A DNA stretch of 61,022 nt, filler included, from Catajapyx aquilonaris (lineage: Eukaryota): the NCBI GenBank assembly GCA_000934665.2. It is 3 parts of 3 records of this genome, joined end to end, with 100 filler letters (N's around TTAATTAATTAA, not from the genome) between each part and the next. Parts side by side here need not be neighbours in the genome. Positions count along the whole stretch, not along the records: positions 20,371 to 40,649 come from JYFJ02006303.1; 2 more parts are not named here. The stretch is one strand, 5' to 3'. Shown one piece after another: positions 22,829-58,406 of this stretch (within the stretch, counting starts at the first letter, position 1; every line of letters begins with the position of its first letter). The notes beneath the pieces are model-generated. The model saw only the letters and a list, made by a program, of their open reading frames with translations. It was not told where the DNA came from and made no database searches. A program made the translations under genes and the position numbers.

Positions 22829-24608
22829 TTAATCCACCCCTGGAATAACTAGCACCTTTCCCTTCGGGTCATCGAACAAGTCATTTGTTTTCACGCTTGC
22901 AATCATGTATATGGCCCACAGCAGGATTATTCCCATGATGGCCGTCACGAAGAGGGTAGTCAAGATTCCAATAGTGAAGAATGTGACGCAGTCCCATCCG
23001 TCGCTGAACTTCCCGTGGGTCACGTTGAACGGCTGGACTTGCACTGCCACCAGTAAGACGCTGGAGTTGTGCAACAGACCTTCGGTTTTGTTGTTTGGTT
23101 TGAGGATCACGTTCTGGTAGCAGTGGTAGGAGAAAGTCAATGGTGCCGTCACCATGCTACCACCAACATAGGTGACATTCTCGTTAAGATCCACGTCGTC
23201 ACTCGTGAAGGCAATTTCGGTATCGCTCATTGACCAGTATTTGGTGTGGTTGTTCATAATGAAATTAAATCTGTAATGGGTGCACACAATTAGATTAGGC
23301 ACATTTTGAAGTTGTCAGTCTCAAGCTCAATTTCTGGTTCTGGAATCACTCGACTGCAACAGATTCTGTTAGAAATGTGCCTGTTTTGCAAGTTCATATG
23401 CTAGAGACTTACTTGAGTGTGATGCTGTGGAAATCTTCAATATCTTTATCGAATGTCACATGCAAATGGGCCTTGCCATCTGCAATGCCACCAGTTACAT
23501 GAGAATAATTGCCCAGAGTTACATTCGTCCTGTATGGTATAAAAGTATCGGTCAAAGTGGAGATCCAGCATATTACTTCAAACAGTACAGTGAAGAGAGC
23601 TCGGACTTACGTGCCAATAAAAATAACTGGTTTGCCTTTTGCGTAGAATAACACGGTGTTGTTCTCATCTGCATAAAAGGAGTCTGTTATGTTGCTTGCT
23701 ACGTGATCTTCAATCTCGTAGTCCTCTTCAATCTCGTAATGGACTTCACGAACTGTCCTCTTTAACTGCGGCAAATCATCATTGATCTGTTGGATTTTAG
23801 TGTTAATTAGGCTTCCAAATAATTGCAAATGACTACTTACATAGTGTGACGTCCTTCCGGAAAAAATTGCTGTTACATCCCCAAACTTCTCTTTTAGCTC
23901 AACATAGATCCGCTCAATGTCTCGGTCTGTAACAAAATTACTTTACAATGTGAAATTTCAGACTCCACATAGGCGTACCATTGTTTCTTAAAACTCCAGC
24001 TCTGTCTTGATTCACCGTAGATGCGAGTGGGACCATTACTAGACTTGTGTTCAAGTCAGCTGACTTCATAGCTTGATTGTATTCGAGTATGTTGCGATCC
24101 GGTGACAGATCGATTGCGTCATAAGGAAAGGCCACTTGAGGTAAGAACAGAGCTTGCTTGGCCATGAGTCGAAGCGATGGAAATAACGGTCCATGTTTGT
24201 CCGGGAGATTCAGATCTTCAAGACTCAACTGTAATTGAAATCATCATTAGGAAATTAATATATTTTTTGGACAATTATTATTACCACCATGTAATCTGCA
24301 AGCAATGATGATTCAGTGCGTAATAATGTCATAATTCACATACCGAATCTTGCACGAAGAAGACACCTGGTCCATTAATTTTCATGAGAACTTGCGAATA
24401 AAAGTCGTCCATGCTCAGCCGCTTCAGCGAAGGTTGATCAATTTGCAAGCTGCAGACAAAAGTTGATGAGGACTGGTGTGTCGTTTAAATGCATTTAAAT
24501 ACAGTACCTTTTGGAGCCCCACACAAGTACCGGCACGTAATCACTCTCATTTCCCAAAACTACTGCGCACAAACAGATCAAACCCAGTGCATGCAAGACG
24601 CCCATCAT
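22829..24608 (-). CDS. ATP6AP1: V-type proton ATPase subunit S1 (Ac45), ~425 aa, 7 exons: 24608-24508, 24449-24344, 24228-23979, 23926-23841, 23786-23611, 23529-23413, 23270-22829
   Basis: Signal peptide followed by VPVLVW; furin-like RTVR; C-terminal VQVQPFNV...FSDGWDCVTFFT, a TM helix, then KTNDLFDDPKGK, characteristic of Ac45. Exon phases are consistent (1278 nt). Confidence 0.92.
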
Positions 24609-24954
24609 GCTAAAAATCAGTGAAACCAGGTTGCGAGAAGGAAGCACAATCATTAAACGTGTGACTGATATTGTATCTGTTGGTGATGTCACTGATACGG
24701 AATTTTTGGGGCGGACAGTGATTCTGACCAATTAATAATTATTCATGAAGGTACGAGCGGACAGGAGGCAAACAAATGATACCCAAATGCAACCTTCTCA
24801 AGGACGCATAGGGTATGAGGGGAGGGTTGGCTTTACAAACACAAGATTTGGTCGTGCAACTGGATCGCAGCATATTCCAGCTTCATGAGGAGATAAGGTT
24901 GGAGTGGAGACGAGAAAGGTACATAAGACTGCTGATTACACAAACGGCTCAGTG

Positions 24955-27900
24955 ATGTTGTGCTGGTGGGGGGTTATCCTGGTTGTGGTCCTAGTTAAAG
25001 CAGAAGTCGAACCAACTTGCACGTTTGTATTAGAGGTAACGACTTGTCCATTTTTATCTCTTTCATTACAATTTGGTGACGTTTAATTTAAGCCGCATGC
25101 AGATTATTTCAGATGGAGAAAGGAGATAACTGCATAATTATAGTTGTTTCCCTCTCATAGTCCCATTTTTCTGACATCTACCAACTTGTGGCTTATTGCG
25201 ATTGTAATAACTGAAATATTTTGTAGGGTCAACATCGCAAGGTGTTCACATGTGCCACGTTTTCCATTAATTATGGTAAGTGGCTGAAGTGTAGTGTAAC
25301 GAACTGCTCAGCAAATTAACACTTTTAATGCACCTGCAGAATGCAAGAAACCAGATAAATTGGAAATTTCCGCTGAAGAATCCGGAGTCACAAAACCGTC
25401 AACTTCATGGAAATGGTTAGAAAATGCGACTCATCCCTCGGTGAACATTGAATTTTCAGTGCTGAATACACAACCTGGTAAAAGTTTTGTGAGAAGTTCT
25501 GCAAAACACGTTCTAATGATAATTTATTTTCAGTGCATGTGATTATTTTGAGACATAATGAGACCATATGCATGTATCTGAATGTGGGCGACCATGTGCC
25601 GAGAAATGGGAAGGTTCGAGTCAGCATTGCTTCAGTACAGCTGACCGCAGGTGAAACATACCGGTTGCAGTTTCTAGGCAGCAATGGAAGGAAACAGCAG
25701 GAACTGCGGCTTGAACTGCCTCGCAGAGTCAAAGGTTATTATGATTACATTTTGAAAAATTGGAAGCAGCTTTGTTCTGCGTTCAGCAGTTTTCTGTTAT
25801 GTTGGACAAAAATATATTCAACGTTACCCTGCTTAATGAAGCCTAAGGATATCATTTCGTTTCTTGAATTTAGACATGGTTGTAACAGAGAAGCACAGAC
25901 CTCGGAAAAAACAGAAGTGCCGGCATCATGGTGATCAGATGCTGAGAATGAAGAGGAACCTTGGCACCCTCGTCGTATATCCACCTTCAGAAGTCAGGCA
26001 TTGTCACGTAAAGCTGTACCGAATTGAATACACTCAGCAGCACTGCAAAGGCTCGTGCCCTGTTATGCGTTATGACAACTGGTATCGCAATCAGTATGTC
26101 AGCTCATCACATGCGCAGTTTGATGACCTGACTGCAGGGTGTTACTGCGTTGGAATCAATTCTAAGAGGTCATGTCCGCCCGAAATAACAACTGTTTTCT
26201 GGATTGAAGGCACTGGGAGTGAATCGCAATGGGTTTTATGGGTCCAGCCTTATCCTGCGTTGTAAGTGCAATGAAATAATCTACTTTCCAACATTCCCTT
26301 TAACCGCACTTTACCTCCACAAATTAACCAATACCAGCCTAGCTAAGTCACGTAAACATCCTGTACTAACATACACTGTACTAACAGAAAGGAGATAAGC
26401 ATGATGCTCACCTGGCCAACCAGATGCAATAACCCAGTGCATGTGACCCTCAATTCTGGTGCTTTTCCTTGCGACATAAAGTGTGACAACTCTGTCAACA
26501 ACTGCACAGGATTGTTTCACCAAAAAATACAACTGAGGCCTGACGTGAGTTAGTGCCAATCACTTGTTTTTTTTTTGCCTTTCTTTGTTGCATAGACGCA
26601 GTGTGTACGTCCGCTTCAGTGTCCCAGTTTGGCCCTGTGGTGGCCATTTCAAAGAAATTGTCATGTCTGTCATGCACGGGATACACAGCTGCAGCGAGAG
26701 GTGGAGAGGTCGAGTGATCCGCCGTCTCAAAACAGGATTGGTATTGTGTTTATTTGCACCTGGCCGATTATTACTCATTTTCTGTTATATTTGCAGACCA
26801 ATGGGACATACACTTTTAATGAGCTTCAACCTGGAAACTATTGTATTCGAGTAAGTTTTTAGACGCTCGATTAACATCACCTGCTTTTATCGGATAAAAT
26901 CAGAAATCATTGCAGCATGAATGATTTAGAAGTTTTTGGCCATTTTCACTACAATGACTTTGTTCAGTATGTACTTAAAGTGAATGTAACATTTCTGGCA
27001 TTACAGGTGAGACCGAGAGAATGCAACAATCCGTACGAACCATGCTGTGAACATGTCTATAGCAAAACTGTCGAGCTGCTGTGTAGGTATTATTTTACTT
27101 ATCTGAAATCAAATGCTTTCAACCACAGGAAATGTTACCAAACCATTTTAAATGCAGTTGAATCAGGATACAACAGACTTCTAGTGACTGCAAAAAACAG
27201 TATGTTATGACCGAGGTCTGTTATAGCCAAATTGTCACTTTTGCAATGAATGCACATGTTTTCTGCTTTCAACACTGGACGTTTGCTGGGACTGGCCTGT
27301 TGAGTCTGTTATAACCGAAAGTCCTTTATAGCCAAGGCTGTTATATCCGGAGTCAACTGTAATTAACATTGAAGTGTTTTTTGCTGATTTCCCTGAAGGC
27401 TTTCCTTTACTTTTTCAGCTCTGTCACACGTAGATGATCATGACGATGAAGATGGAATGTCGAGTTTAGTCTATGTCTTTGTGGTGATATTTTTGGTGGT
27501 TGTCATACTGTGTGGTGTAGGGTATGGATGTTCAATGTTCCGGGAGTGGTATATCAACCGGGAAGGTACGTATTGGCATGCCATTGCTTAGTAGAATTTG
27601 GTGGCTAATTGACCTATTTTTTCAGGTGGTGAACTTCCGCATTCACATTCATTTGATCCGCTGTGTCAACCCAAAATTGTGCTATTATACACACGAGACT
27701 CGCCGCAATTGTGCGAGACTGCCAAATTGTTTAGAGAGATGTTGAAGGCCGCCAATTGCAAAGTAAGCTGCCAAGTACACTAGCAATGATTTCCACATAT
27801 TATGCAAATATTAAATCACATCGTGACATTATAAACATTACATAGTGTGAAAACTTACAATCCGGTTTTCACTTATTTCTGACTTTTTTCCCAAAAAATT

Positions 27901-28823
27901 TCGTTGTAGGTATTGGACCATTTTGAGGACACACATTCTGACACAGTTTCTTGTGATCCACATTCATGGTTTCACCGTCACATAACTAATGACTACCAGA
28001 CTAAAGTGGTGCTGATTACGTCAGCAGGGATGGTCAGCGTAGAGGATATTGTTATGCGTGACCGAGACCAAAAGGAGGTGCAACTCACACAACAAAGTGG
28101 ATTGGATAACATGGTTATCCTAGCTGTGAAAATGGTGGCTCAACTGCATAAGCAAGCAGAAAGAGTCATTGTTGTAAGGTAAATGGTTTGATGCAGGATT
28201 AACATTTATGTGGGGAAATGATCACTGTGCACATAACATGCAATGCACAGAAATGGAATTCTTCAAACATACGGTATAATTATAATCTTAAAGTTTGTGA
28301 ATGCGCTGCACAACACTGCATTTCATATGTTATCAATTTTGTTGCTACTAGTGAATTTATTTTTGGCATCAAGAATATTTTGTAGTGTAAACTGATGCGT
28401 TCATTTTCATTCATACAGTACATGAAATTTACTTTCAGCTTTGATGGGATTACACCAACGGCTGAGTCTCTGACATATTTCAGTCACAATAGATGCCTTG
28501 TACTTCCAAAGCGTATTGCTGACCTTATAAAACACATTTACAGGTAATTCCATGAGTAAATAGACAATTTACTCTCAGTCAGTGATAAGATAAGAGTTTG
28601 TGGCGCCTATTGACCTGAAATCATGAGTTGCATTCATATCATTTTATCTACCCTCTCTTTTATCAGGGCACCTGATGAATTTGTACGAGGTTTAATGTCA
28701 TCTGGAGATTTTAAGGAGGCATACAAACTGTTTCTTCACAACATTATGGTGGAGAAAAATGAGCAACTGAGTCAAGAGGCCCAAGAAGGAAGGATTTATC
28801 TGTCGAGGATATCAACTGTCTGA
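24955..28823 (+). CDS. IL-17 receptor-like single-pass receptor with SEFIR domain, ~648 aa, 13 exons: 24955-25035, 25227-25275, 25340-25477, 25534-25734, 25874-26261, 26596-26740, 26797-26850, 27007-27082, 27419-27565, 27626-27762, 27910-28178, 28439-28543, 28667-28823
   Basis: Signal peptide MLCWWGVILVVVLVKA; Cys-rich ectodomain with two FN3-like motifs (FDDLTAGCYCVGI, FNELQPGNYCIRVRP); TM LVYVFVVIFLVVVILCGVGY; SEFIR-like KIVLLYTRDS...LKAANCKVLDHF...DPHSW...KVVLITSAG...RVIVVSFD...LVLPKRIADLIKHI. All introns GT-AG and in phase (1947 nt). The last exon end is the least certain part. Confidence 0.8.
27155..27359. mobile_element. Tc1/mariner-superfamily (pogo/Tigger-like) MITE in intron 8 of the SEFIR gene
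   Basis: TIRs CAGTTGAATCAGGATACAACAG / CTGTTATATCCGGAGTCAACTG, followed by TA on the right; internal subterminal TGTTATA.CC repeats. Confidence 0.65.
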
Positions 28824-30025
28824 TTACAAATAATAGTTTGCATGATCCTTACTTTTCTTTTCATTCATTTAGATTTGAGCAGTGCACAACTCCACATATT
28901 CTATGTAAAATCTGTTCATTTTATGTAAGTGTCATTTAATGGCACCGTTTTGATATGATAACGACCAGTTGTATTGAGTCAAATATTGGGGAGAAAATCA
29001 CTGATTATAATGTCAATGCCTACACAAAATTGTTGATTTTCTTTAATTTGCATTCATAAAGCTGGTCCATTGTCGTGTTTTTATGCAGAAAGTTTAGGAC
29101 TGCTTTGTAGCATAAAGATAGCATCATGTCTTCACTGTATAAAGGTGCACTGGTTGAAAATTCCTGCAGGAAAATTAAGATCTGAGAAACTGCACAGAAT
29201 GGATGAAGCAACCAATGAGAACATGTCTCACTTGCAGAAACAGCAAATGTGTTCATTTTTCCACATGATTTTGCCATGAAAAAAACCAAGGATTAGTGTG
29301 CTAACTTTTTCTTGTCTGAATTTAACTGCAGTAATTTTTAGCTGGTGTAATATGAGCTCATCTTATGAAAAGACCTATTGATACTGCACTTTGGCCATTA
29401 AGGAATTACAAGTAGATTATGCCATTGACTAATAGCTTGCGAATAGGTTATACCAGGAACTCATAAAGATTGGCCTTGGTGATACTGAAATATGTGGAAA
29501 AAAGCATTAAACCATTTTAACTTATAAGTAATCAACTGATGATGTAAAGCATTTTCTTTTGCAAAGCTGTATCTCTAAGATTAAAATATTTGTAGATACA
29601 GTATTTAAAATTTTAAAATTATAACTGCATTATTCCACTCACAAATTGTGGGTCGACCTTTTAACCCGCAGTGAGAGTGGGAACACCCAGCAGCCACTAT
29701 CTTCCTCATCATGGCATGAAGGTCAATGGGCCAATGCCAATCCTGCTGAAACTCCATATTACACCCACAATTGAATTTTTGTCCCACTGGTAGTTGCACT
29801 TGTAAAACAGCTGCCAATGTAAAAATTATGCTACAGGCTGGCAACTAATTTATTGCAATACAGCCTATTAAGTTGTGTTTTAAGTACAAAAATAGATTGA
29901 TAACGTGAACTTTAACATGAACTTTTGTTGTGCTGAGCGCAAAATAGGGCAGAACCCCTCATACTGGTACACACAACATGTCTTGTAACATGAATGTGAA
30001 ACCCACTGTTGATGCAAGCTGTCAC

Positions 30026-38216: not shown

Positions 38217-40481
38217 CAATAAATCAATAAATAAGTAAATAAATAAAATAACACAAGCAGAACAAGAGAAAGATATGATTGTCATGATGGCTGAGAGGAT
38301 GTTTGTTATACTTGCTCGAGAACTGTGACTGTAAATCTCATTTTGTAGTTGTATAACATACTGGTGGTGCGTAAAAAAGGTCTCAGGTTTTTTTAAATTT
38401 TCAGCTACGCCCTTCTGGGTGCGAGCGGATCTGGCAAGACGACTCTTCTCACCTGTTTGATGGGCATGAGGAATCTGGATTCTGGACAGATCACAGTCTT
38501 CGGATGCCAGCCAGGGACAAAAGGGTGCGGCGTACCTGGACACAGGGTCGGATACATGCCCCAGGAGACATCTCTCATCATGACCTTTTGCACACGGGAG
38601 ATGATGGTCTACTTCGGCCGTCTGTACGGAATGAGCGACCAAAGCATACTGGACAGGATGGGATTCATGGCCACGTTTCTGAAGCTGCCCAGTCTGAACC
38701 GGACCATCCACACTCTGAGTGGAGGTCAGCAGAGAAGAGTGTCGTTGGCAATTGCTCTCTTGCATGACCCCCAATTGCTCATTTTGGACGAACCGACAGT
38801 TGGGGTCGACACCTTGCTCAGACAAACGTACGTTTTTTTGTGGTCTTCGTGGGACATCATGATTTAATTAATGAGCTGATTGTTTCAGGATATGGGACAA
38901 TCTCAGAGAGCTTACCGTGAAGAAAAGCATTACAGTCATTCTCACAACGCACTATACAGAGGAAGCTGCACGTGCAGATGTTGTTGGGTTCATGCGAAAC
39001 GGTCGATTGTTGGCACAGGACACTCCTGAAAGTATTTTGCGACTTCATGGCGAAACTAGTTTGGAGAAAGTTTTTCTGGCTCTCTGCAAGAAGGAATGTG
39101 GGATTTCCAGTGGTAGAATCATCACGTCTCTCGGTAATGATAACGGTTTGGTAATATGCTGCGTAAAGATTCAACCTTCTATGGACCAGTAAATCACTTT
39201 TATGTACGAGACTTATCATTTGGTACCATAAGCCTCATTACCGATATAGGAGTATTTAAAAAATGATGTCTCGCCTTATTAATATCATGAACCAAATTAT
39301 AGCAGAGACACGTGCTGCGGATGGTGTAATTATGGAGACATCATTGCCGAATATTCCATGCCCAACCACTACATCCATTAGGAACCACGTTGAAGCGATG
39401 CTGTTGAGAAACTTGAGACGTGTTCGCCACAATATCATGTAAGCATTCGAGTGTAATGTACATTGTGTCACATTCGCCATCAGCAACGTCATTTTTTCAT
39501 GACATTTGCATCAGATTGTCATTGTGCTTCGTGATGTTTCCTTTCCTGATGGTTGCCATGGGGTTGGTGGTAATTGGTGGCAACTTCAAATCTCTTCGCT
39601 TCGGTGTTGTCAATCACGAATGGTCCCATGAACCCATCTGCAAGCCACTGGATGAGTGTCTTTTCGTCAATCTCAGCTGTAGCTATTTGGCTCATTTTGA
39701 CCACACGCTGGTCAGATTGGTAGGTAATGCTCTGTTATAGGAGGAAAATAATATCGCCCTCATTAAAATATAATGCATATTATTTACAATTACAGGAAGC
39801 ATATGCGGATGAGAGTTCTGCATTACAAGCTGCTGAAAATGGCCAGTCCTGGGGATACATCACATTTCCTAGAAATTACTCGGATTCAATCACCAAACGC
39901 TTGCTGGATGTACAAGTAAATGCAGCTGATGAAGGGGTATTGATCAATTCGGTTGCCGTTGTCAAATTGGACAATACTGGTACGAAACATAACAACGAGA
40001 TATTTCTAATGGTTCCCAGCGTACTTATATGATATATTTTGAACCTTTTTTTGTGGGGGACAGTTGGACTACTGTCTCTCAGATTGCAACAGGATTTGCT
40101 GCAAAGTTTTGAAAAGTTTAACAGAGAAGTGCTGTCTATGTGTGGTATGAATACCCAACTCTCAAAACCATTTATTCAGGTACAGTATACGTTTTTCAGT
40201 TTTGCGTGTTGTTATTACAATGTTCTATGTGTCACTTATTAGGCGTACCTATATTGTCACTACAAAACAACGTTGTTTTTGGCAAATTTCTTATTACTCA
40301 TCATCCTTGAACATTAAAAGTAACCTGATTTGTATAGAAAAAAAGTAGTTATGCAAATGAAATTTCCCGTCACTTGACTTTTTCCTATCATAATTAATGT
40401 GTTCTAATTACAGCTTAGCAAGGCCTTGGGACCAGAAAAGCCGACTTATCAACATTTTCTATTTCCAGGATTGTTAGCGAA
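37996..40481 (+). CDS. ABC half-transporter, subfamily H (often annotated ABCG23-like); 3' truncated by the contig end. Exons 37996-38126, 38405-38827, 38889-39112, ~39306-39438, 39515-39719, 39796-39979, 40064-40179, 40414-40481
   Basis: Walker A YALLGASGSGKTT; ABCH-typical PGTKGCGVPGHRVGYMPQE; signature LSGGQQRRVS; Walker B LLILDEPTVGVD; H-loop TTHYTEEA; then a TM helix and FGVVNHE luminal loop, giving NBD-TMD order. Confidence 0.92.
38140..38213. repeat. (AAT)n microsatellite in ABCH intron 1
   Basis: About 24 perfect TAA/AAT units. Confidence 0.97.
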
Positions 40482-41376: not shown

Positions 41377-42058
41377 TAATTCGGCGTAATTCGGCGTAAA
41401 AACCTCGTGATGGTCTCGAATCTCACAGGTACCGACATGGAAAGAAGTGATTGCGGGTCAAAATAAAAAACTGTAGTTGGCCGCGGCGTCCCAGGAGAAA
41501 AATAAGCGCACCATCTCAAAGTGCAACTCTTTCGCGTCCATATACTCCAGTTTCATGCCGATACCTCCATATTTGCGGCCGTGACAGCGAGAGGAAGAAG
41601 TGTCAAACTCACGGGCCGGCCCGCGACGGGCTTCCCCGCAACAATGGATAGCGTAGCCTAGAGCGCGCTCTTAACGAGGAATAATACGCGCGAATTTTGA
41701 TATCAGAAACATTATTTTCTATGCATAAATGAGCAGAGTCTGTTGTGTAAAAAAAATTTGTTTAATAAATATTTCATGTATAAGACGTGTGTAATTTTCT
41801 TCAAAATCATCCAACTCTTGAAACAATAAAACCAAGTATAATTATTGGTACGTGCCATAAAAAATAAAGTGCAGATTGATTACAAGTTAGCCGCATTTCA
41901 TTTTTCAGTTCGTATGTCCAACTGTCCCGGACCCAATGACCTCATGAAATCATTTATTGGCTCAAGTGTCACTGATTAGAAGGGACCGTTTATCTCGAGG
42001 ATACCAGTATATCGCCCATACAACGAACGATAATAATTGTCACACGGTTCCTTTCAAC

Positions 42059-43644
42059 ATGTGGATCGAGACGTTACTCTTTGTGGTCATCCTCATATTA
42101 TGGAATTACCTGAAGGAACCCAAGGGATTTCCGCCAGGGCCCAGGGGCCTGCCCCTGGTCGGATACATGCCCTTCCTGACCTCCCACCCGGCTCGGAAGT
42201 GCCTCCAGCTGTCCAGGAAGTACGGCGACGTCTTGGGGATCACCATCGGGTCGTACAAATGCGTGGTCCTCAACAGTGAGAGCGCCATAAGAGAGGCCCT
42301 GAAGGAGATGTCCTTCTCCGGCCGACCTCAGATGCCCTTCCTGAACGTCAGGTCAGGCGGTAAGAAGAAAGGCGTCCTGTTCGGCGAGGGCAAAGAGTGG
42401 CATGAGCAGCGACGGTTCGTGCTGAAGAACCTGCGTGACTTTGGCTTCGGGAAGAAGTCCATGGAGCAGATGATTCAGGAGGAGGCCAGCGACTTGGTGT
42501 CCAGGTTCAGGTCGCTTCTGGACCGACCTGTGGAGCTGGGGAAAAGCTTCAACGTGGCTGTGGTCAACTCTCTCTGGGCCATGGTCGCAGGGGAGAGGAT
42601 GGCACACGATGATCCGCGGATACTGTTGCTGGTGGATAAACTTGTTACGTGAGTTCTCTATAACAAGCAGTAAGACATGTAACACTAAAAGACTTTTTCC
42701 CACAGGAGCATACGTAGTAATTTCATATTCGCACCAAGAAACTTCATACCGTGGTTGTCGCAATACTTCCCATGGATGGCCAATCAATTGGGCAAGTCAA
42801 GTTCCAAGGTGCTCTCTCCGTTCATGCAAGACGTCATTAAGAGTCATCGTGCAACGTACGATGCCAACCATCCGCGTGACCTAGTTGACATGTACATCAA
42901 GGAAATTGATGAATGCAAGGACGCCAATTCCAGTTTCTACGCAGGGCCTGAAGCCGGTAGGTATTGCGTTCCTGTACGTACCGTGCAAGTTTCATGCAAT
43001 TTGTGTTCGCAGAACTGATGCTGAAGACAGTGCTTCTGGACTTGTTCGTGGCTGGTACTGAAACGACAAGCACCACACTTCGCTGGGCCATCCTGCACAT
43101 TCTGCGCAACCCTTCAGTTCAAACCAAAGTCCAGGCTGAGCTGGACAGCATCGTGGGACGGTCGCGCCTTCCGTCGCTGCAGGACAGACCCAACTTGCCA
43201 TACACGGACGCCACGTTGATGGAGGTGCAACGCATGGCATCGCTTCTCACCTTTTCAGTCTTCCACTCCACGACCGAAGACGTCACATTCCGAGGCCACC
43301 TCATCCCAAAGGACACTATTGTCCTCCCTAATCTGTATGCGATGCTGCACAATCCCGACCACTGGTCAGCACCCGAGATGTTCAGACCAGAGCGGTTCCT
43401 GTCTGAAGATGGGAAGGTGAAGAAAGACCCGCACCTCGTCCCCTTCTCAATGGGAAGGCGGGTCTGCCTCGGAGAAACCCTGGCCCGAGAATCACTCTTC
43501 CTGTTCTTCACTTCAATGCTTCAAAACTTCACCTTCACGACAGTTCCCGGAGAAGACGTGCCCAATCCCGAAGATTCATACATGGGCCTCGTTACCATTC
43601 CCAAGCCATTCAGTGTCATCATGCACGAAAGAGGAGATAAATAA
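42059..43644 (+). CDS. Cytochrome P450, CYP2 clan (CYP15/CYP2L/CYP2J-like), ~490 aa, 3 exons: 42059-42648, 42706-42956, 43013-43644
   Basis: N-terminal anchor + PPGPRGLPLVG; WHEQRRF (WxxxR); AGTETT I-helix; EVQR (ExxR); PERF; heme loop PFSMGRRVCLG; in-phase GT-AG introns (1473 nt). Confidence 0.96.
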
Positions 43645-43702: not shown

Positions 43703-43930
43703 AGAGGATTATTATTAATGTTCTTTATCGTTGCTGTACATAAACCTGTTCAGCTCAAAATAAACCGCATGCACAAGTTAAAGACAAGTCATTATTTCAA
43801 TACGTCTGGATCGATAAAACAAGGATCGCAAGGTTGATATGCTGCTCTCAAGTTCGATGCCGGCATTCTTATCCGTGTCGATCTGATATGACGTATCAAT
43901 CTTATGGGAACCTTCAAACTCCTTGGCCCC
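43703..43930 (+). repeat. P450 upstream segment, copy 1 of a ~230-bp direct repeat
   Basis: Closely matches 60791-61022, e.g. GTCATTATTTCAATACGTCTGGATCGATAAA and AAGGATCGCAAGGTTGATATGCTGCTCTCAAGTTCGATGCCGGCATTCTTATCCGTGTCGATCTGATATGAC. Confidence 0.93.
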
Positions 43931-43951
43931 ACCTTTTGGCTGTCTGCCGTC

Positions 43952-44110
43952 ATGTGGCTCGCAACGATCCTCGTCTTCTTGTTCGTGCTGCTGCTGTGGA
44001 AAGTGGTGAAGGACGCGCCGCACAAGTTCCCTCCCGGCCCATGGGGTCTGCCCGTGGTTGGGTTCATGCCCTTCCTGACATCCAACCCTGCCAAGAAGCT
44101 GGCCCAACTC
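43952..44110 (+). pseudogene. Truncated clan-2 P450 (N-terminal ~53 codons only)
   Basis: MWLATILVFLFVLLLWKVVKDAPHKFPPGPWGLPVVGFMPFLTSNPAKKLAQL aligns to the upstream P450 N-terminus, then switches abruptly to unrelated sequence with no splice donor. Confidence 0.8.
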
Positions 44111-44769
44111 CCTTCCAAGTTCACATCTTGCGATGAACAGTTGACGGGGGCACTGCCACACACGCTTCGAGGTGCTCGTGGATGTTTGGATTTTCCTTTG
44201 TCACCATTACTCGTCTTTTCTTCGTCACCTCCGGTGTTCGGTGCAGTGCGGGTTGTCACTTCTGGCCGTGACCTGAGGTACCAGCAACAGTTCATGTGGC
44301 GAATTTGTTACGATTCAACACTGTGTTGATCCCTTTGTCTGTCACAGTGAAATATTTTAGCTCATACTGATTCCCGATCTGACTGTACGTATATTCCACG
44401 TTGGCAAGAGCAACAATGAACCCTTCCCAAAAGGGAATTATTTTTGAAGGCATGCCCCAAAAAGGCATCCCCAAGAAGTAGTTTCTTGGTGGTACAAAAC
44501 TCGTCACACTCTGTAGAGTCAGATTCAGCGTTTATTCACCAAAAAGGTCAACCTGTAGTGATATATATGATATATACCACTTTTTCCCAAAATCACAATT
44601 TGAATGACCCGTGCCCCCGTAGTCTTCTGTACCATATGAAGAAGAATGATGTTGTAAATAAACTGGGTTAGTATCATTTCCAGGCTTTTTAATTTATACA
44701 TGTACTGTACGGACAGGACACTGGACCGGGGTGGGCAACTATTTAATAGTAATTTACTCAAAGTAACTG

Positions 44770-58105: not shown

Positions 58106-58406
58106 ACCGAAGCAGTGGTAGCGGAGGGGATTTGGTATCCGACTGCTAATCGGGAGGTCCTGGGTTCGAATCCCGGTGGCCGCCGACCCTGACCGTGGTT
58201 TTCTGTGGTTTTCCACGGTCTCACCAGGAAAATTCCGGGGTCGTGTCAGTAATTATAGGCCACAGCCGTCCCTATCCCGTCCCCATATAAGAGAAGTAAA
58301 AACTAAAGTAAGAGTTCCAGATAAAAAAAAATATGGTGGTATCCCACCCCCCTAAGAGAGCCCATGGCTCTAGCACAAGGTACAAATAATAATTATTATT
58401 ATTATT
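58106..58406 (+). mobile_element. tRNA-derived SINE
   Basis: A-box-like TGGTAGCGGAGGGG; B box GGTTCGAATCCC; core GGTTTTCTGTGGTTTTCC...CCAGGAAAATTCCGGG...AGGCCACAGCCG; (ATT)n tail; 13-bp TSD ATAGGACTGATTT at 58093 and 58407. Confidence 0.9.

Follow-up and report, generated by a model that had tools for sequence, protein, structure and literature searches.

Background

The question raised by positions 24955-28823 of a stretch of Catajapyx aquilonaris DNA (assembly GCA_000934665.2) is whether they encode a receptor of the interleukin-17 receptor (IL-17R) kind, with FN3-like modules in the ectodomain and a SEFIR domain in the cytoplasmic tail, as had been proposed in a preliminary description of this DNA. 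The window, by which the whole stretch of 61,022 nucleotides (nt) is meant, provides the numbering used throughout, and the locus lies on its plus strand, inside the part taken from JYFJ02006303.1 (20,371-40,649). In the present analysis the locus is a real, spliced and transcribed gene, and the likelihood that it encodes a diverged type I receptor of the IL-17R kind is judged to be slightly better than even.

Receptors of this kind are established in arthropods. IL-17Rs are listed for Limulus, Ixodes, Daphnia, Penaeus, Apolygus, Lygus, Cimex, Zootermopsis and Harpegnathos in a supplementary table of PMC11087794, and a candidate receptor for the hormone CFSH, Lvit-IL-17R, has been described in the shrimp Lysmata vittata (PMC10604874). 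Some of the arthropod IL-17Rs have been tested for ligand binding, with shrimp CFSH and Lygus PTTH binding their respective IL-17Rs, and the receptors have been linked to hormone-like cystine-knot ligands, namely CFSH in crustaceans and PTTH, which is described as insect-specific, in some insects (PMC11087794). With published members from decapods, Daphnia, ticks, Limulus, Hemiptera, a termite and an ant (PMC11087794, PMC10604874), the view of the locus as a poorly described arthropod IL-17-type receptor overstated its novelty.

Methods

For the gene model, GT and AG sites were tabulated by coordinate and then chained in phase from the ATG at 24955 to a stop. For training of a codon-usage score, 632 codons were taken from other genes of the window. 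This DNA is carried by five public sequencing runs. A single sample is the source of four of them, all DNA runs; the fifth (X5) is a small run of 2022, its kind not on record, with 1/5 of the sampled words. Contigs of X5 and of one DNA run (X1) were compared over 24700-29100.

Pfam searches and structure predictions were performed with unspliced single-exon translations, whereas the spliced tail was scored against profiles with HMMER and hhalign. The SEFIR profile was built from six cyanobacterial SEFIR domains, PF08357 having matched 6 of 401 cyanobacterial genomes, and control profiles were made from the same genomes with 11 bacterial TIR_2 domains and 12 CheY domains.

Results and discussion

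A spliced and transcribed gene

The locus has the eukaryotic pattern of short open segments alternating with stop-rich stretches. Its rebuilt model consists of 14 in-phase GT-AG exons (Table 1), with 2109 nt encoding 702 amino acids (aa), no internal stops and a TGA stop at 28821-28823. The preliminary description had given 13 exons and 648 aa; its start, its stop and its in-phase, stop-free GT-AG chain are retained, as are the exon borders within its cytoplasmic segment 27626-28543 (exons 11 to 13), while the exon count and the length are revised. When exon 11, intron 11 and exon 12 are read through, five stop codons are encountered.

Exact GT..AG joints, agreeing base for base with the model, are present in X5 contigs for 6 of the 13 introns, and none of these six joints was seen in the DNA run X1. 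Exons 8, 9, 10 and 11, comprising two ectodomain exons, the exon of the transmembrane (TM) helix and the first cytoplasmic exon, are connected in a single 347-nt X5 contig; therefore, the ectodomain, the TM helix and the cytoplasmic part are joined in one molecule. The RNA-type contigs thus place ectodomain, TM and cytoplasmic exons in one transcript, so that the second ground for refutation named in the preliminary description, ectodomain and cytoplasmic exons in different transcripts, is not borne out. An unspliced X5 contig covers 24829-25089, spanning exon 1, and the 5' untranslated region (UTR) therefore extends to at least 24829; at the other end, X5 contigs span 28664-29100, which takes the 3' UTR to at least 29100. 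By codon score, all 14 exons range from -0.41 to +0.22 bits/codon in frame, as against -0.24 to -1.28 for the 13 introns in any frame, and exons 1-7 look like exons 8-14.

Two observations on the 5' half count against the model as drawn. There is no X5 cover over 25141-26757, so that exons 2-7 lack junction support, and the codon usage score of exon 7 is higher in both other frames than in the chosen one. They bear on an explanation in which exons 1-7 lie outside the transcript or are partly mis-called, the locus then producing a shorter protein from near exon 8 or being a decaying duplicate. It is in keeping with this that joints are found only from exon 8 onwards, that exon 1 is covered by a single X5 contig, which carries no joint, and that another, diverged copy is present in the genome; an X5 contig that differs by 15 letters in its exon-11 part has a frame-breaking joint, 27762->28025. 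Nevertheless, seven successive exons that remain in phase and open over 1164 nt, have consensus splice sites, resemble the RNA-supported exons and not the introns in codon score, and provide a signal-like start and a Cys-rich ectodomain with a motif that recurs in the RNA-supported exon 8 make this explanation very unlikely.

Exon 7 is largely open in all three frames and is followed by a 51-nt intron that keeps the frame and contains no stop. Reading through 26596-26850 gives a 13-exon variant of 719 aa, and skipping of exon 7 would also keep the frame, as calculated from the model.

Topology and ectodomain

The N-terminus (aa 1-26) is hydrophobic and signal-like, with a peak of 1.83 in the Kyte-Doolittle 19-residue mean, and the hydropathy scan of the spliced model contains one strong internal TM helix, reaching 3.16. 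Between the two lies an ectodomain of 428 aa with 23 Cys (5.4%) and four N-x-S/T sites, and the helix is followed by a tail of 232 aa. The signal peptide, Cys-rich ectodomain and TM helix claimed earlier are borne out by these values, and the product is a type I single-pass membrane receptor with a non-kinase tail, its signal-like start being read from hydropathy.

The two L-x-x-G-x-Y motifs of the preliminary description are both present and are the only exact copies, starting at aa 242 and aa 398, while a relaxed third copy, one residue longer, starts at aa 126. In composition-preserving shuffles, two or more exact copies arose in 21 of 20000 and three or more relaxed copies in 2 of 20000. 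The motif spacing suggests three modules of about 120-150 aa. Thus, the ectodomain may be composed of approximately three beta-sandwich (FN3-like) modules, each closing with an F-strand-type motif of the form L-x-x-G-x(x)-Y.

Structure prediction for exon 5 alone (128 aa) with AlphaFold2 resulted in an all-beta model with eight strands, predicted with low confidence (pLDDT 52.5, pTM 0.50). Foldseek with this model returned no match at E <= 0.001, the best rows being Ig-V and transthyretin-type sandwiches with TM scores of 0.4-0.5; generic Ig, transthyretin and CnaB-type sandwiches were the only matches listed in the exon 5 fold searches, with no FN3 or IL-17R chain among them. Over the exon 8 motif stretch, Pfam gave weak, below-cut-off matches to beta-sandwich families (E 0.03-0.13). 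The ectodomain, as modelled, is probably of beta-sandwich type, for which FN3/IL-17R is a candidate label.

A putative SEFIR domain in the tail

When the spliced tail was compared with the SEFIR profile by hhalign, a score of 26.1 (P 0.0027) was obtained over 62 columns at 26% identity, with tail residues 25-93 (aa 495-563) lying on profile positions 5-67. None of 300 shuffles reached this score (best 22.8) and the reversed tail scored 10.8. HMMER placed nearly the same segment, aa 496-562, on profile positions 5-65, aligning the first strand, the first helix, the second strand, the Trp-bearing helix and the third strand. The TIR_2 control profile scored 19.1 with hhalign (P 0.026) over 28 columns, on the same first strand and helix, and -1.0 bits with HMMER; the CheY profile scored 13.3 (P 0.22) with hhalign. 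The SEFIR and TIR profiles match each other at P 3e-12. The signal in the tail is therefore modest but specific, in the right place and with the elements in the right order, ranking SEFIR above TIR and TIR above an unrelated alpha/beta fold, and the SEFIR domain is regarded as putative.

Several results of the same and of other searches weigh against the SEFIR assignment. The HMMER score of the alignment is only 2.2 bits, a value equalled or exceeded by 28 of 1000 shuffles, and a broader, less sensitive profile of 125 bacterial SEFIRs gave 0.2 bits and an hhalign P of 0.018. On calibration, a comparable bacterial SEFIR profile (A1, five of the bacterial domains) gave 110 bits for a bacterial SEFIR structure, 47.6 for Act1/TRAF3IP2 (PDB 9ot1) and 13.9 for human IL-17RA. 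The tail, with its 2.2 bits, therefore departs from the SEFIR consensus far more than a genuine receptor does. Eight single-exon translations searched in Pfam with E up to 10 gave no SEFIR, TIR, FN3 or IL-17R family, the only matches being the beta-sandwich families below cut-off at the exon 8 motif and, for the TM exon, families of no relevance. No SEFIR, TIR, IL-17R or Act1 chain was found in sequence searches of the PDB with exons 11 and 12, a search for homologues among longer proteins with exons 12 and 5 gave no scoring match, the Atlas search with exon 12 gave no usable one, and the AlphaFold2 model of exon 12 alone was uninformative (pLDDT 41.2). Homology to known IL-17Rs was thus not detected with exons 5, 11 and 12, single-exon queries being a weak negative. 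In many IL-17Rs, even domain models are reported to have difficulty in recognising the SEFIR and double-FN3 domains (PMC11087794), which fits the lack of library matches at this locus.

These results raise the alternative that the gene encodes a lineage-specific orphan type I receptor outside the IL-17R family, the tail of which is an alpha/beta domain, whether a further STIR/TIR-like offshoot or one with an unrelated fold, that resembles SEFIR through a generic beta-strand/helix/beta-strand start. In favour of this are the lack of a Pfam SEFIR or TIR match on single exons and of a homologue in the protein, PDB and Atlas searches; the HMMER score inside the shuffle range, the fact that the TIR profile aligns with this first strand and helix as well, and the restriction of the likeness to the N-terminal 62-78 columns point in the same direction. 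The alternative is considered somewhat unlikely, as SEFIR is the best of the three profiles and its hhalign score is unmatched among the shuffles, the match begins at the start of the profile and at the distance from the membrane expected of a receptor SEFIR, and published arthropod IL-17Rs have the same overall architecture.

The preferred reading, a diverged receptor of the IL-17R kind, thus keeps the architecture of the earlier interpretation, i.e. a signal-like start, a Cys-rich ectodomain, a TM helix and a non-kinase tail of about 230 aa, with exons 8-11 in one X5 contig. The 'SEFIR pattern' that had been claimed for the tail receives weak statistical support: single exons give no Pfam match to SEFIR or TIR, whereas the SEFIR profile aligns with aa 495-563 in register from the first to the third beta strand.

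In a homologue search with the bacterial SEFIR alignment, all 120 of the matches listed were bacterial by name and no animal receptor name was among them.

Other candidates were considered and set aside. Exon 12 gave two matches among 1.84 billion protein representatives, to a SprB/CHU_C bacterial protein and to a 209-aa repeat protein, both internal-repeat artefacts. A metagenome scan with the same exon gave one match of 14 residues, in an antisense open reading frame (ORF) of an unrelated contig, which was dismissed as chance. PADLOC, applied to the four cytoplasmic exons, returned only an irrelevant match to PtuA (E 0.0061), and a TRAF-binding motif in the tail was dismissed by eye only.

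Comparison with known systems

The arthropod IL-17Rs of PMC11087794, such as Lygus hesperus IL-17R1/2 and Penaeus vannamei IL-17R1/2, resemble the present product in their type I topology and in the size of their non-kinase tails (about 230-290 aa); their ectodomains and SEFIR domains are strongly diverged, as are the ectodomain and the SEFIR-like region here. They have two sandwich modules, as against seemingly three here, judging from the motifs; the comparison with them is one of layout. Lvit-IL-17R (PMC10604874) is similar in having a signal peptide and one TM helix, followed by a cytoplasmic SEFIR domain, which is putative here; it differs in length (625 aa, as against 702 aa here), in its ectodomain (295 aa, as against about 428 aa) and in that its SEFIR was predicted by its authors' sequence analysis, whereas the single exons here gave no library match.

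For the SEFIR domain of vertebrate IL-17RA (PDB 4nux), positions 1-78 of the bacterial SEFIR profile fall on the N-terminal half, and the corresponding part of the tail takes up positions 5-67. The bacterial SEFIR proteins (PDB 5y8f; cyanobacterial loci L114-L118) show the same order and register from the first strand to the third, including the Trp-containing helix, but are cytoplasmic multidomain proteins and not receptors. The TIR-domain receptors of the Toll/IL-1R type belong to the same STIR superfamily and share the weakly aligned first strand and helix; their profile, however, covers fewer than half as many columns of the tail as that of SEFIR and scores lower, and the TIR family of Pfam is not matched by single exons.

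Proposed mechanism

In the reading as an IL-17R-type receptor, the tail would start, 25 residues past the membrane, with a strongly diverged SEFIR domain of the STIR superfamily. By analogy with published IL-17R biology, two receptor chains may be bridged by a ligand from the IL-17/Trunk/PTTH/CFSH group, a cystine-knot dimer, and the SEFIR domains clustered in this way would recruit cytoplasmic partners by homotypic STIR contacts. Signalling would then have to be direct or to pass through TIR-pathway adaptors, because a CIKS/Act1 adaptor is reported not to have been discovered in any arthropod (PMC11087794).

Coordinates, second copy and neighbouring genes

Table 1. Exons of the receptor gene and other features of the window, with the splice joints present in X5 contigs
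Feature	Position	Strand	Residues	Remarks
Exon 1	24955..25035	+	aa 1-27	Start codon and hydrophobic signal-like N-terminus; donor GAG|gtaacg
Exon 2	25227..25275	+	aa 28-43	GT-AG borders in phase, without junction support
Exon 3	25340..25477	+	aa 44-89	GT-AG borders in phase, without junction support
Exon 4	25534..25734	+	aa 90-156	Relaxed motif L-T-A-G-E-T-Y at 25641-25661; codon score +0.18 bits/codon in frame
Exon 5	25874..26261	+	aa 157-285	Probable beta-sandwich module; L-T-A-G-C-Y at 26128-26145
Exon 6	26388..26544	+	aa 286-338	Cys-rich; codon score +0.22 bits/codon
Exon 7	26596..26745	+	aa 339-388	Uncertain; weak donor ATT|gtgttt
Exon 8	26797..26850	+	aa 389-406	L-Q-P-G-N-Y at 26824-26841; X5 joint 26850|27007 (contig 9)
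Exon 9	27007..27082	+	aa 407-431	Last ectodomain exon; X5 joints 26850|27007, 27082|27419
Exon 10	27419..27565	+	aa 432-480	Acidic stretch, then TM helix ~27463-27534 (aa 447-470); X5 joints 27082|27419, 27565|27626
Exon 11	27626..27762	+	aa 481-526	Juxtamembrane part and SEFIR-like start from ~27667 (aa 495); X5 joints 27565|27626, 27762|27910
Exon 12	27910..28178	+	aa 527-615	Centre of SEFIR-like region; X5 joints 27762|27910, 28178|28439
Exon 13	28439..28543	+	aa 616-650	Putative domain end; X5 joints 28178|28439, 28543|28667
Exon 14	28667..28823	+	aa 651-702	C-terminal tail and TGA stop
Repeat in intron 9	~27195..27365			Very high-copy; X1 summed contig depth 16,712, as against ~30 in flanks
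V-ATPase accessory subunit Ac45/S1 homologue	22829..23942	-		Pfam Ac45-VOA1_TM E 1.5e-11, VAS1_LD E 2.8e-09
ABC-transporter ATPase exon	38397..38867	+		Pfam ABC_tran E 2e-25
Cytochrome P450 gene, two exons	41948..43644, 43892..44329	+		Pfam p450 E 5e-75 and 2e-29
tRNA	58112..58184	+		Rfam 30.7 bits (gathering score 29 bits); only Rfam match

A second version of 28005-28518 (the 3' half of exon 12, intron 12 and exon 13) is present in the DNA run X1, its depth of 33.8 beside 31 being that of a full single copy. It differs from the window at 26 letters and by a 6-nt in-frame deletion in exon 13, and in the intron 97 letters are replaced; six of its changed codons are synonymous and 11 non-synonymous, with no stops. 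The second version is probably a diverged paralogue located elsewhere in the genome, outside the window. The X5 contig with the differing exon-11 part (contig 10, 776 nt) corresponds to 27625-28176; its joint is of the GT..AG type and would break the frame in this gene, while no difference from the window is seen in its 3' part. A chimera of a transcript of the paralogue and this gene is the likely explanation, or else an alternative acceptor. The repeat in intron 9 shows many loose ends and rearranged joints in X1, and an inverted repeat was looked for in this intron and not found.

The Ac45/S1 homologue stands head-to-head with the receptor gene, at a gap of at most about 900 bp. An open frame after the P450 gene has a start like the N-terminal exon of the first P450, as judged by eye, which suggests a tandem P450 pair. 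A long Tyr-coding simple repeat lies near the ABC-transporter exon on the opposite strand. The window contains 177 N in total, and an ORF from 20327, at an N run read as an assembly gap, opens with a run of X.

Significance for the IL-17R family

The kind of receptor is already known, and the locus is at best a new, very divergent arthropod member of the IL-17Rs. There is no springtail entry in the table of PMC11087794, springtail terms being absent from the supplementary material searched; no paper treating SEFIR and Collembola together was found in the literature searched. If the taxon placement holds, the locus could give springtail-like basal hexapods their first recognised IL-17R-type receptor, one with three FN3-like modules and a SEFIR degenerate beyond library detection, a combined claim that is considered unlikely.

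Since no protein matching its exons was retrieved from the collections searched, the locus illustrates how such genes evade homology-based annotation, and it represents no new class of system. A confirmed member from a basal hexapod would widen the map of IL-17R/cystine-knot ligand pairs and would serve as a test case for the extent of SEFIR divergence in a phylum without a discovered CIKS/Act1 adaptor. If the reading is true, the receptor could reveal the ligand used by hexapod IL-17Rs before PTTH arose.

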